From: a virus
Reading direction: 5' to 3' (one strand)
DNA: 26,274 nucleotides
IMG/VR virus record: IMGVR_UViG_3300038701_002504
Span: 83,235 to 109,508 of that record
Made by a program: the position numbers and the translations under genes
The notes under the pieces: generated by a model
The model's database searches: none
Seen by the model: the letters and a program-made list of their open reading frames with translations, nothing else
Told to the model about the DNA's origin: nothing
Shown here: piece by piece, positions 15,152 through 20,302 of the stretch
Layout: every line of letters starts with the position of its first letter
How positions within the stretch are numbered: position 1 is the first letter of the stretch

Positions 15152-15366
15152 TATTTCTCCATTGTCTTTTCTAATTTATTGATAAAAGCATCAATTTGTT
15201 TATGTCGTTTGTCGCCTGGCCAATTGATTATATTGGAATCTTTATCGCCTTTCAAATTTTCCAGAAAGGTCTTCATCATCTCAAACATTTCCGATGTTCG
15301 ATCAATTGGTTTAAAATCTTCTTCTGATTGGAATGTAAATCCAAAATCGTTAATATCTTCACTCAT
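15151..15366 (-). CDS. Small hypothetical protein of T4-like phages
   Basis: DFGFT...FLENLK...INWP; coupled between the polymerase and uvsX. Confidence 0.75.
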   Translation of the reverse strand: MSEDINDFGFTFQSEEDFKPIDRTSEMFEMMKTFLENLKGDKDSNIINWPGDKRHKQIDAFINKLEKTMEK

Positions 15367-17152
15367 AAAATTGACTCATATCAGATTTATTTTCTAATGA
15401 AATGCCGGCTGGATTTGCTAGCGATGTGATTGGTTTAATGAAGGTTTTTTCAAACTGTCTATCATAATCTATGAATTGATCCAATCCAAACTCTTCTGGT
15501 AACTCATCTAAAGACGATATAACATCTTCACGTATAGGATTAGGCAATTTCAAATATGTGAATTTAATCTTATCACCACTTTGAATTTTCATATATGTCT
15601 TATCTAGATCATGATCCTCTAACAGTTTGTTATATAGTAAAGAACCTCTTACATGAAGCGGTGTTCCTTTCGTATATAGAGTATTTATATCACTATATTT
15701 CGAAACGCCATTTACTCCGCCTGGATTTGCAACTTTTTCAAATGGAAGTGAATAAAATTCTTCTCTACATTTTTCGATAAATGACAAAAGTCCATCTTTG
15801 TCATTGTTAAGAATTATTGGTATACTATTTTTGATATAATTTCTACATACTTCAGGAGTTGAAGATTTAACAGCTTCAATACCCTTCATCTTAATTTTCA
15901 TTTCAGAATAGAATACACCTTCATTGAAGAATACGCCCATCACATAGTTCTTTGACTTACGCCAAATTACCTGAGCAATCACTTCAAGCTTCATATGTAA
16001 TTTTTTCTGATATGCATTTGTTACTGAATATAGATCTTCCATAGCAGCTTGGATGACGTGTTCTTCAAGATGTTTTGAAAAATTTGATAAGAATTTAACA
16101 ATTTCTTCTCTTTCACCACCATTCGGGAATGCTTTCTTAACAACGCCTTCCATATTAAAGTATGCTGAGTCTGTATCTACAGCGATAATATAATCCACAT
16201 TGTCCGTCTTTAACATCTTATTTAGATATATATTAGCGTATTTCTCAACATATTTAGAAGCCAATTGGCCACTTAGTGTAATAGACTCTGCAATGTCGTA
16301 GCTAAACCAACGTGAATACGGATTCGCAAGTCCTCCATAGAAGGCATTCGCGAAAATTTTAGTTGCTAATTGTTGGTTGTTAAATTCAACAACACGTGAT
16401 TTTGTCTTTTTATATTCTTCCTTTAATTTGGCATCATCTGGATTTGTTGAAAGTTTTTTCTTAATTTCTTCAAGCTTCTGTTCTTCGAGAAGCATGATGT
16501 CTTTATATTCTTTTCGTTTCGCAAAAACTTCTTCCATGATTTCAGCAAAGAATGATTTTTTAGCTCGAGAAAAAACTGTGCCTTTTGCAGTAATGCACAT
16601 ATTATTTTCCAGAAGTTTTTCTTTAATCTCATCATAAACTCTATCATTGATAATTCTATCTGGATTGTCAACATTGTCGAATTTATCAAGTTTACCCATA
16701 TAAGCATCTGGAGAAATATTATATGTCATAATAATATGTGGATAAAGTGATGTGAAGTCATATGACATAACATATGGATACAAACCAGGAATCACTTCCT
16801 TCACATATCCACCAGCAATAATTCTGGAAAGCTCGCTACTTTCGGCTTTTTTATGTGGAATTACAACTTTATAATCCATCATTTTATTATGAATCACAAC
16901 ATCACAGGGTTTCACAGTCGCGAACGCGTCATGTAGGTTTGTTCGAGTAAAATGTGATAATGAGAAAATGAGTTCAATAAATTTCAACTCATGTTCAAGT
17001 TCTTCAACTCGAACAATATCGATTATGTTGTATGTATATGCCATAGCATATGATTCTTTATCGGCTTCTGCTTCTACTTTTTCTAATAATTTTTGTAAAT
17101 CTTCAGTAGAAATTGTTTTTATATCTAAATTTAATATTTCTTCTATATTCAT
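15359..17152 (-). CDS. 43: DNA polymerase gp43, C-terminal fragment (ExoIII, palm, fingers, thumb)
   Basis: YNIID (ExoIII), SYDFTSLYP, KIFANAFYG, AVDTDS, KGIEAVKSSTP. Confidence 0.95.
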   Translation of the reverse strand: MNIEEILNLDIKTISTEDLQKLLEKVEAEADKESYAMAYTYNIIDIVRVEELEHELKFIELIFSLSHFTRTNLHDAFATVKPCDVVIHNKMMDYKVVIPHKKAESSELSRIIAGGYVKEVIPGLYPYVMSYDFTSLYPHIIMTYNISPDAYMGKLDKFDNVDNPDRIINDRVYDEIKEKLLENNMCITAKGTVFSRAKKSFFAEIMEEVFAKRKEYKDIMLLEEQKLEEIKKKLSTNPDDAKLKEEYKKTKSRVVEFNNQQLATKIFANAFYGGLANPYSRWFSYDIAESITLSGQLASKYVEKYANIYLNKMLKTDNVDYIIAVDTDSAYFNMEGVVKKAFPNGGEREEIVKFLSNFSKHLEEHVIQAAMEDLYSVTNAYQKKLHMKLEVIAQVIWRKSKNYVMGVFFNEGVFYSEMKIKMKGIEAVKSSTPEVCRNYIKNSIPIILNNDKDGLLSFIEKCREEFYSLPFEKVANPGGVNGVSKYSDINTLYTKGTPLHVRGSLLYNKLLEDHDLDKTYMKIQSGDKIKFTYLKLPNPIREDVISSLDELPEEFGLDQFIDYDRQFEKTFIKPITSLANPAGISLENKSDMSQFYE

Positions 17153-17184
17153 CTTTATTTTATCTTTCTGGAAATCAACGATAT

Positions 17185-17198
17185 TATAAATATTTATA
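17185..17198. promoter_or_regulatory. Palindromic back-to-back late promoters
   Basis: TATAAATATTTATA is a perfect palindrome with TATAAATA on each strand. Confidence 0.65.
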
Positions 17199-17217
17199 TA
17201 ACATTAAGGATAGAGTA

Positions 17218-17934
17218 ATGAAAGAATTTATTAATTTTTCACATGATAACAATAACATAAAATCTAATAAATATTTTAAATGGTATATCCAAATTATATT
17301 TAATTCCATTTATTCTAATAGACCTTTATTTCATAGAGAATATGAAAAACACCATATTCTTCCTAAAAGCTGTGGTGGAAGCAACGAAATAAATAATATA
17401 TGTATTTTAACATATAAAGAACATTATATATGTCACTTATTGCTAACTAAATTTCTTCTTAAATATGAACATAAGCGAAATATGCAATTTGCACTACATA
17501 CTTTTTTTCATTTTGATAAAAATAGAGTTTTAGCCTCAAAAAGATCCTTAATATATGAAAATCATAAAAAATTATATAGTAAATATCTTTCTGAGAGAGA
17601 ACCATCAAATGTTAGAGAAGAAATATATACTTTTAAAAACAAAAAAACCCATCAAATTTTTATAGGGCGACCAATAGATTTTATAAAATTTTCAGGTTTA
17701 ACCCATCAAGAAATGAATCATCTACAAAATGTTTATAATAAAAAAGCTTCATATAAACATATAAAAAATTGGGGTATTTTTTTAGATGATAAACAAATTT
17801 TTTCTTATGAGATTCCATATAAGAAAAGAAAACATCCTACAATTAAATGTGAGTTTTGTGGCAAAGTCACAGCAAAATTTAATTATGTAAGATGGCATGG
17901 AAAAAACTGTAAATCACTTATCAGTCCTGTTTAA
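17218..17934 (+). CDS. Free-standing HNH homing endonuclease (MobE-like)
   Basis: EKHHILPKSCGGSNEINNICILTYKEHYICHLLL; C-terminal CEFC...RWHGKNC; AAGGA SD before ATG 17218. Confidence 0.9.
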   Translation: MKEFINFSHDNNNIKSNKYFKWYIQIIFNSIYSNRPLFHREYEKHHILPKSCGGSNEINNICILTYKEHYICHLLLTKFLLKYEHKRNMQFALHTFFHFDKNRVLASKRSLIYENHKKLYSKYLSEREPSNVREEIYTFKNKKTHQIFIGRPIDFIKFSGLTHQEMNHLQNVYNKKASYKHIKNWGIFLDDKQIFSYEIPYKKRKHPTIKCEFCGKVTAKFNYVRWHGKNCKSLISPV

Positions 17935-18930
17935 TAGTTCATCTTTTATTTTATCTCTCATATAACACAACTTTTCTAGTTTTATCATATCTTTAATATT
18001 TTTATTTTTATCGTATTTAAATACTTTTGATCCTTCCAATAGTTTATGTAGCTGTGTCATTTCGCCAGCTTTAAGCTTTTTCTTATCCAAAACAACATGC
18101 GAAATGTAATCTAATTTAAATGACTCAGAGTTTTTAAATGAGAACTTTTTATAACACTCCATATAGTCAAGAGTTGGAATGCCAATGATATCATATTGTG
18201 TTTGTTCTCTACCATACATCATAAAAGTACTTTCTTCTATGATGCCAAAAGGTGATAGAGATTTAGCAAAATCTTCACCAAACAATCTCATCAATCTTCG
18301 AATAAGATACACATGGTCGTAGCCGTTAATGTTCCAACCAGTGATAACATCCATTTTGAGACGTTGCCACGTCTCTACAAATTTAAGCAGAAGATCGCGT
18401 TCATTATCACATTTAATGTATATCACATTTTTTGTGACGCCTTCACGGTCAAGAATTTCTTGAATAGGCTCAGCATCCTTAAGACCAAAGCAATACAACT
18501 CATTGTCAGACATCACACCGATTGAGATTGACGTGATCTCTTTATTTGCTGTTTTGATGTCGGCATAACCACCATCAGAGTCAGTTTCAATATCGTAATT
18601 ACCGATACGAATTACACTATTATCAGATTGGAGATCTTTATAATTGTCATAGATCCATACATAATCGAAGTATGTAGATCCATATAGGTTATATCCATCA
18701 ATTCCTTCATGATCACGAATAAACTGACGAGCTTCGAATGGCGATTTAAATTGCTTTTTCTCAACATAATTTCCATCCATGTTTTTGTATGGAGTTTTTT
18801 CCACCGAAGGAATAAACATATATGGATGTATTTTAATCTCTTCGTTAAATTTAATGCCGCCCTCATAATATGAAATTAATAATTTCGATTTCGATTGCTT
18901 AAAAAATGTGTAAAATTTACTTTTTGACAA
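17914..18930 (-). CDS. 43: DNA polymerase gp43, N-terminal fragment (NTD, ExoI, ExoII)
   Basis: YDIETD, ITGWNINGYD, LSPFG, LDYMECYKKF...SFKLDYIS; TTG start with AAGGA SD. Confidence 0.93.
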   Translation of the reverse strand: MSKSKFYTFFKQSKSKLLISYYEGGIKFNEEIKIHPYMFIPSVEKTPYKNMDGNYVEKKQFKSPFEARQFIRDHEGIDGYNLYGSTYFDYVWIYDNYKDLQSDNSVIRIGNYDIETDSDGGYADIKTANKEITSISIGVMSDNELYCFGLKDAEPIQEILDREGVTKNVIYIKCDNERDLLLKFVETWQRLKMDVITGWNINGYDHVYLIRRLMRLFGEDFAKSLSPFGIIEESTFMMYGREQTQYDIIGIPTLDYMECYKKFSFKNSESFKLDYISHVVLDKKKLKAGEMTQLHKLLEGSKVFKYDKNKNIKDMIKLEKLCYMRDKIKDELLNRTDK

Positions 18931-18948: not shown

Positions 18949-19011
18949 TATAAATAATATGAGTCGCGGATTGCAGTCCCACTCATTCTAACACTTAAGG
19001 GAGTATCAGCT
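18949..19011 (+). promoter_or_regulatory. Late promoter plus structured 5' leader of the GIY-YIG gene
   Basis: TATAAATA (18949-18956); ATGAGT...GGAT-TGCA-GTCC...ACTCAT hairpin; AAGGGAG SD. Confidence 0.6.
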
Positions 19012-19725
19012 ATGAGTATTTATACAGTATATCAAACTACTAATCTTGTAAACAACAAATTTTATATTGGTGTTCATAAAACAGATGATCCGCATGATGA
19101 TTATTTGGGTTCTGGGAGACTGATAACTAGAGCAATAAAGAAGTATGGACAAGAAAACTTTGTGAAAAAGATTCTATTTATTTTTGATAATAGAGAAGAT
19201 GCTTATGATAAAGAGAAAGAGCTTGTTAATATAATACTGCTTGAAAATTCATTATGTTATAATATGAAGGAAGGTGGGATAGGAGGAAAACATTCCAAAG
19301 AATCACGAGAAAATATATCAAAAGCCCAAATAGGTAAAAAACGTAATAGTGAGGCATGTGCTAATATATCAAAAGCTTTAAAGGGTAGAAAAATATCTAA
19401 CAAACATAAAGAAAAACTATCAAAAGCAGCTAAAGATAGAAAATATACTAGAGAATTTTCAGAAGCTATGTCAAAGGCATTAAAGGGTAATGTTTTAGTA
19501 TCCATGTCTCATTTAAAGTATCACTATAAGTTGATAGACCCAAGCGGAAATATTCAACTTGTTGAAACTGGATTAGTAAAATGGTTAAATGAAAACAATA
19601 TGCCATTAAACTCAATAGCAGTTTTAAATAAGGCCTCTGGAAAAATTATATCCAGAGGCATTTTTAAAGGATGGATATCAATTAAGTATTTAATTCCTCC
19701 AGATCATAGCCAAGATACATTCTGA
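19012..19725 (+). CDS. Free-standing GIY-YIG homing endonuclease (Seg-like) with NUMOD3-like repeats
   Basis: VYQTTNLVNNKFYIGVH, YLGSG, AIKKYG..NF, E...YN..GG; repeated ISKA.KG units. Confidence 0.92.
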   Translation: MSIYTVYQTTNLVNNKFYIGVHKTDDPHDDYLGSGRLITRAIKKYGQENFVKKILFIFDNREDAYDKEKELVNIILLENSLCYNMKEGGIGGKHSKESRENISKAQIGKKRNSEACANISKALKGRKISNKHKEKLSKAAKDRKYTREFSEAMSKALKGNVLVSMSHLKYHYKLIDPSGNIQLVETGLVKWLNENNMPLNSIAVLNKASGKIISRGIFKGWISIKYLIPPDHSQDTF

Positions 19726-20302
19726 CATATTTATACAGCGTAACCAAATCATTAATTTCGAAAGCTGTAAAATTATGTTTACGCTGCATATATCCGGGAC
19801 ATGTAATACACATATAAGCATCACCGTAGATTGATTGAGGGACATTGTCTGGGATACTCTTCACAATGAAGATGACCTTGTCCTTGATTTTCTGTTGTGT
19901 CATATTTCCAATATTCCACTTGCGAGTCCATGAAGAATCAAACCCGGTGATATTCTTCACATCGCCCTTCACAAAAATACGATCTGATCCAACATAAATC
20001 TCTTCGGGGGGAGCATTTGCGATAAAGTCTTTCTTGTATTCAATCGCTTCATCATTGGAAATATTGTCAATAAGAATATGACTTTCCCAACCTTCAAAAT
20101 TGGTATTGATAAGCGACATCATAAATCCACTTTTCAAACCGCGAGCATCTCCGCCTTCAAGCATTTGCTTATGTAGATGTTTTGCTCGGGAATAATTTGA
20201 TGACATTGATGAGGATTGCTTCACTGTATCTGTGTTGTAAATACCAACATAATACAGATTTCGCGATGGGTTTGTGTGGAGAACGACTGATTGAAGTTTC
20301 AT
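19682..20302 (-). CDS. Hypothetical early protein, possibly a degenerate GIY-YIG domain
   Basis: GAGG SD, own early-type promoter; LHTNPSRNLYYVG...EAIEYKKDFI. Confidence 0.7.
   Translation of the reverse strand: MKLQSVVLHTNPSRNLYYVGIYNTDTVKQSSSMSSNYSRAKHLHKQMLEGGDARGLKSGFMMSLINTNFEGWESHILIDNISNDEAIEYKKDFIANAPPEEIYVGSDRIFVKGDVKNITGFDSSWTRKWNIGNMTQQKIKDKVIFIVKSIPDNVPQSIYGDAYMCITCPGYMQRKHNFTAFEINDLVTLYKYVRMYLGYDLEELNT

Follow-up and report, generated by a model that had tools for sequence, protein, structure and literature searches.

Gene 43 of a T4-like virus is split between ExoII and ExoIII around an antisense HNH gene: a candidate two-chain proofreading polymerase

Introduction

Homing endonuclease cassettes can split a metal-binding or active site and supply terminal tails to the two products. 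This principle is already published for MobA in topoisomerase and for MobE in NrdA. Here we describe a locus in gene 43, which encodes the DNA polymerase gp43, in 26,274 nucleotides (nt) of viral DNA (positions 83,235 to 109,508 of IMG/VR record IMGVR_UViG_3300038701_002504; "the window"). This stretch lies at the end of a linear virus record of 109.5 kb. Its gp43 is encoded by two open reading frames (ORFs) with an opposite-strand HNH gene between them, and the break falls between the exonuclease motifs ExoII and ExoIII.

In the T4-like topoisomerase gene 39/60, the MobA element is about 1.1 kb long, has tails of about 44 amino acids (aa) and replaces 55–75 nt (10.1101/2022.08.31.505936; structure in PMC11461880). 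Our locus resembles it in having an HNH cassette that is independently inserted at one site in many clades and splits a metal-binding site, with C- and N-terminal extensions and with a host stretch deleted and replaced by a homologous region. The endonuclease is likewise lost or swapped for a GIY-YIG gene in some copies, and secondary fusions retain the tails. The host gene here is a DNA polymerase, however, and there is no 50-nt bypass cassette. At nrdA-a/mobE/nrdA-b of Aeh1 (Friedrich 2007; Crona 2011, PMC3045599), a MobE-family HNH gene also splits an active site, with a basic C-tail, an acidic N-tail and no splicing. That enzyme is a different one, and mobE is on the same operon message, whereas the HNH gene here is antisense with a late box. 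Tail function was tested in Aeh1, whereas here the tails are known from sequence and models.

The exonuclease-site split has every feature of the MobA/topoisomerase and MobE/NrdA class that a sequence can reveal. A homing endonuclease gene stands between two parts of an essential gene, the added extensions are conserved and oppositely charged, the short deleted host segment is replaced by a recoded homologous stretch, and the one site has been hit repeatedly in unrelated clades where near-identical empty alleles exist.

Two-gene polymerases are also known. As far as Petrov 2006 and 2010 are relayed in PMC3061061 and PMC2988022, gp43A/gp43B of Aeromonas and Acinetobacter phages is a two-gene gp43 with the break at the fingertip; phage 25 has a GIY-YIG gene in the gap, and its halves co-purify with activity. 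By those accounts the exonuclease is whole there, whereas in our locus the break spares the fingers and falls in the exonuclease. The fingers-split tails share short motifs with those at the exonuclease site. Published family B (PolB) splits lie in the fingers, in the palm and at the N/palm boundary (PMC3061061, PMC13648687). M. thermautotrophicus PolB is split in the palm and RM378 at the N/palm boundary, PhiKZ DNAP-N/C has a palm insertion with all four exonuclease acids on one chain (PMC13648687), and S-SBP1-like PolA is split at the exo/pol boundary (PMC10201439). In these four, too, two chains rebuild one polymerase, but by their descriptions no break falls within the exonuclease catalytic set or involves a tail-bearing nuclease cassette. 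Fractured genes with split inteins (Dassa 2009, PMC2677866) share the free-standing endonuclease between two gene parts; we see no intein halves here, and our locus resembles only their single intein-less SbcD-like case.

An earlier reading of the window from its letters alone (the sequence-only reading) took this split position as one not known to be described. Our own search, which reached neither Petrov 2010 nor most subscription papers, likewise turned up no account of a gp43 broken between ExoII and ExoIII.

Results

The two gp43 genes

The window has T4-like head genes on the + strand and a replication block on the - strand with uvsX, gp41, dCMP deaminase and thymidylate synthase. Both gp43 ORFs are on the - strand. 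The N-half (17914-18930, 338 aa) starts at a TTG with AGGA 6–7 nt upstream and comprises the N-terminal domain, the exonuclease up to the helix before ExoIII, and a C-terminal tail. The C-half (15359-17152, 597 aa) is unbroken from its ATG at 17152 and comprises a tail, ExoIII, the palm, unbroken fingers and the thumb. Between the N-half stop and the C-half start there are 761 nt.

The N-half aligns to residues 4-312 of RB69 gp43 (E 6e-32) and the C-half to residues 318-899 (E 3e-60), which places the break at RB69 312/318. This alignment puts ExoI (D113-I-E115, 18586..18594; RB69 D114/E116) and ExoII (W199...D205, 18316..18336; RB69 D222) on the N-half. On the C-half are ExoIII (Y41-N-I-I-D45, 17018..17032; RB69 Y323/D327), D132 of motif A and D326/D328 of motif C. 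A structural model of the N-half (pLDDT, predicted local distance difference test, 84.5) shows the N-terminal and exonuclease domains and has RB69 gp43 as its best fold match. With ExoI-III, motifs A-C, RB69/T4 homology and the uvsX/gp41 context, the pair is a T4-like family B gp43. Both halves are free of stops and under purifying selection, with nonsynonymous differences (pN) of 0.08–0.12 against synonymous differences (pS) of 0.64–0.76.

These results bear out the sequence-only reading, including the RB69 comparison it proposed, in that gp43 is in two ORFs with their own starts and stops, with ExoI and ExoII on one and ExoIII and all polymerase motifs on the other. It had also called both halves intact. 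Their frames are indeed open, but each half bears an extra tail that went unmentioned. We considered and rejected the bicistronic fingertip arrangement (gp43A/gp43B) for this locus, given the continuous fingers and the position of the break.

The antisense HNH gene

The gap is filled by a + strand ORF at 17113-17934 that matches the phrog_655 homing endonucleases (E 1e-23) and has intact HNH motifs (EKHH / GGSNEINN / EHYICH), in agreement with the MobE-like HNH gene first seen there. Its ratio of nonsynonymous to synonymous substitution (dN/dS) is 0.25 against the homologue L006. The ORF originally reported, from 17113, is present and is the longest one, but the true start is more probably ATG 17218, which would make the gene 17218..17934 (238 aa). 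AGGA and a T4 late-promoter box, TATAAATA at 17185, precede this ATG. Two such boxes stand back to back, at 17185-17192 (+, towards the HNH gene) and 17191-17198 (-, towards the C-half), both as consensus matches only. The HNH gene overlaps the last 7 codons of the N-half. A search for related loci with the HNH gene as query gave three weak matches. A second MobE-like HNH gene of this genome is free-standing between nrdB and nrdA (L005:1417-2178; G000:C1 ~16.8-17.6 kb).

Boundaries of the element

We compared the window codon by codon with its closest relatives, L008 and L001, in which the exonuclease is whole and gp43 is split at the fingertip instead. The window departs from host sequence after residue L286 of the N-half and rejoins it at T40 of the C-half. 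The mobile element, delimited against an uninterrupted allele of 87% identity, is thus 1037 bp (17036-18072, without strand) and replaces 20 host codons with partly recoded equivalents. Its GC content is 23%, against 33% in the gp43 gene cores. The element supplies a C-tail of 52 aa, which is basic (aa 287-338; 17914..18072, -), and an N-tail of 39 aa, which is acidic (residues 1-39 of the C-half; 17036..17152, -). The first ~12 aa of the C-tail are the recoded counterpart of the deleted host segment, and its helix 317-337 ends in I-K-x-E-L-x-x-R. The N-tail has an I-S-T-E-D-L motif and is predicted to lengthen the ExoIII helix. In the other boundary comparison, L009 against L017 (98% core identity), DNA identity is complete until shortly before the break, where it ends a few codons short, and recoding is again seen in the flanks. 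Besides its fingertip split, L008 has a group I intron (RF00028) in gp43B at the motif B region (L008:7607-7815).

The terminal tails

The opposite charges are general. N-tails are acidic in 10/10 cases (charge -3 to -10), and the last 20 aa of 40 C-tails have a charge of 0 to +7 (median +4). I-x-x-E-x-x-x-R, a motif that we picked after inspecting the data, occurs in 26 of the 40 C-tails at the exonuclease site against a background of 1.1%. It is also in 25/32 fingertip-split tails and 1/128 unbroken fingertips. A common origin of the two sets of tails is plausible, their likeness being one of motif counts only. Searches of the tails against Pfam and PDB gave chance matches only (ATP-cone below the cut-off in Pfam, no match to any solved chain in PDB).

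Every split copy retains its tails, including those that have lost the endonuclease (L097, L101-L104). Three natural single-chain polymerases (P0215, P0227, P0267) have the tails fused in frame as 49-52 extra residues. The model of P0227 (pLDDT 93.9) has a helix at 172-189, a 3-residue turn and a single 40-residue helix at 193-232, with ExoIII in the second half of the latter. This fusion model makes it simplest to read the N-tail as prolonging the ExoIII helix, with the C-tail helix as its partner.

Prediction of a complex from the tails by themselves gave a score of 0.32, against 0.00 for the best of 3 controls, with contact agreement between runs of at least 84% and partner pLDDT of at least 71. 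The mark that defines a pass was reached by 58/80 solved pairs and 2/110 mismatched pairs. At scores of 0.60 or below it was reached by only 7 solved pairs and both mismatches, and a pass this low is false in most cases unless the pairing was likely beforehand, so 0.32 is weak support.

Recurrence

With a profile of the last 87 N-half residues, we searched a 50%-identity protein library and found about 40 proteins that end at the exonuclease site with a homologous tail. Among these are 25 distinct clusters, besides that of the window, of full-length N-halves of 319-345 aa (median 34% identity), and the ExoI and ExoII acids are recognisable in nearly all of them. The ExoIII Y, N and D are invariant in 8/8 C-halves examined, each of which has an N-tail. 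P0005 (two ENA assemblies) and the cyanophage-like L009-L011 (three samples of the Joint Genome Institute, JGI) are cut at this site as well, again with an antisense HNH gene.

The gap gene varies. It is a phrog_655 HNH gene in the window, L006, L009, L098 and L099 (antisense in the window, L009, L098 and L099) and reads as GIY-YIG by eye in L100 and L105. HNH remnants are left in L097 and L103, no endonuclease ORF in L104, and L101/L102 have no sequence between the halves, which share 8 nt of overlap. Two carriers are cultured, Variovorax phage V45v66 (L104; PV558790.1) and Pseudoalteromonas phage vB_Psh_XG4 (L105; PP712099.1), and both records are unannotated. Plaque formation is reported in the V45v66 preprint, which says nothing about the polymerase. 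Two candidate C-halves, P0078 and P0094, were rejected as contig-edge truncations. Gene 43 of Acidovorax ACP17 is annotated whole.

On a FastTree tree of the tail-less exonuclease core, in which deep branches are uncertain, the split label requires 22 changes against a shuffled mean of 23. At least 11 changes are forced by well-supported branches, and such counts cannot tell gain from precise loss. The window groups with the uninterrupted P0002 (87%) and not with the next split copy (57%), and in four cases a split core shares 87-100% identity with an uninterrupted allele. Among the 80 viral contigs with the closest match to the L009 N-half, those that cover the region show no split at the exonuclease site. 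This scattered pattern is the one expected from a homing element with a fixed site. Judged by its distribution, the split is a widespread mobile element and no one-off.

Further cuts and neighbouring genes

Some gene 43 copies have more than one cut. L099 and L100 combine the exonuclease-site cut with the fingertip cut and have three gp43 chains (L099:3501-7976, L100:3501-7729), with an antisense endonuclease at the exonuclease-site cut and a same-strand HNH gene at the fingertip cut. The P0194 contigs have three genes, with ExoI on a 137-aa ORF, ExoII on a 251-aa ORF with a tail, and a 589-aa polymerase ORF. In L106:1524-2693 and the ENA contigs that are sisters of P0194, three different ORFs hold ExoI, ExoII and, judged from the gene call, ExoIII/polymerase, and an antisense HNH gene follows the middle gp43 piece. 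P0215, P0227 and P0267 contain another insert immediately behind ExoI as well as stretches resembling inteins, probably from repeated hit-and-run events. Fingertip-split gp43A/B is very common among the matches (L001, L008, L017 and some 30 proteins with lengths of 480-525 aa), with short conserved tails.

Directly upstream of the gp43 N-half in the window is an antisense GIY-YIG/NUMOD3 (seg-like) endonuclease gene (19012-19725, +), to which the late box at 18949 belongs; it is absent at the same place in L001 and L008. A 206-aa gene upstream of gene 43 (19682-20302, -) is conserved in L001 and L008 and has no Pfam or PHROG match. In L013:1837-3921, intein-like and NUMOD3 genes interrupt uvsX.

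Discussion

From sequence, models and analogy, we put the probability that this gp43 is a two-chain polymerase with a composite proofreading site at roughly 0.8. The sequence-only reading had proposed such an exonuclease site assembled from two polypeptides, and our analysis supports it. A mobile homing cassette with neither intron nor intein (C-tail, antisense HNH gene and N-tail) would have been placed between ExoII and ExoIII. The halves would be translated separately, from their own starts on an early polycistronic message, and would fold into one heterodimeric polymerase. The acidic N-tail would lengthen the ExoIII helix and pack on the basic C-tail helix as a hairpin-like clasp, and D45 of chain B would join D113, E115 and D205 of chain A to complete a two-metal site for proofreading. 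The HNH endonuclease, expressed late, would nick uninterrupted gene-43 alleles in mixed infections; recombination would copy the cassette, whose insertion would destroy and recode the HNH target. We are less sure of the clasp, which comes from the models, than of the two-chain enzyme.

Several points weigh against this proposal. No clear Shine-Dalgarno sequence precedes the C-half. T4 mutants deficient in the exonuclease survive as mutators, so phage viability is no proof of proofreading. The tail-tail prediction is a weak pass only, and tail pN/pS, 0.58 against one homologue over 49 codons, falls only moderately short of 1. The tails of Aeh1 NrdA are dispensable for the heterodimer and required only for higher assembly and activity (PMC3045599). 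Since that heterodimer forms without tails, their role here may differ from a clasp. The halves might then assemble and proofread through the native exonuclease fold alone, with the tails as tolerated leftovers or with another role (translation start, solubility, higher-order contacts). Engineered split Pfu also assembles without tails (PMC3061061), and the tail sequences are variable, with a mean column identity of 34-41%. We take this reading seriously but think it unlikely, as the tails are kept even after endonuclease loss and re-fusion, the C-tail motif is far above background, and the T4 topoisomerase tails serve as an assembly bracket (PMC11461880). It is a good deal less probable that the dimer forms with proofreading lost or weak, as a mutator polymerase with a structural N-half. 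The cut does adjoin the catalytic helix, but the window and very distant split copies retain all four exonuclease acids as well as the tyrosine of ExoIII.

The gene could also be rejoined at the RNA or protein level, by an atypical intron, a split intein or a ribosome bypass like that of gene 60. Group I introns often carry HNH genes, gene 43 of a close relative contains an intron at another place, and P0215/P0267 and L102 carry inteins or intein-like stretches at other sites. However, Rfam searches of the element found no group I intron (RF00028 core) at E up to 10, whereas the same search scores the intron of the relative at 115.6 bits, and nearly the whole gap is occupied by the HNH ORF at 23% GC. 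No intein Pfam family matched the halves or tails, no Hint halves were detected at the new termini, and the N-tail has no C-terminal His-Asn/nucleophile junction. The absence of intron and intein claimed by the sequence-only reading is in line with these searches. As to bypass, the 761-nt gap contains stops, and the C-half has no coding gap after the N-tail. In L101/L102 there is nothing to splice because the halves overlap, and these zero-gap homologues retain both tails. We regard rejoining as very improbable. The probability of an assembly error or a dead pseudogene is close to nil. The window is a single metagenomic contig, but misassembly is very unlikely because the same architecture recurs in independent ENA, JGI, Logan and GenBank assemblies, and stop-free halves under purifying selection argue against a pseudogene.

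A broader idea is possible but doubtful. One portable helix pair, basic I-x-x-E-L-x-x-R and acidic L-S-D-x-E-L, might be a general splicing-free counterpart of the split intein, forming the same clasp at the ExoII/ExoIII site and at the fingertip and stackable with a third cut beside ExoI. A proofreading site of normal fidelity might then be built from up to three polypeptides (L106).

If the two-chain enzyme is real, it would be the first family B polymerase with a two-chain proofreading site, as far as searchable papers show. The tail pair is a candidate for a small heterodimerisation tag in split-enzyme work, and two cultured phages and near-identical empty alleles allow direct tests. The split is common, occurring in dozens of phage lineages, and is easily mis-annotated as a truncated exonuclease next to an exo-less polymerase. 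It adds a third and widespread system in which to ask how essential genes are invaded by homing endonucleases when no splicing is involved.

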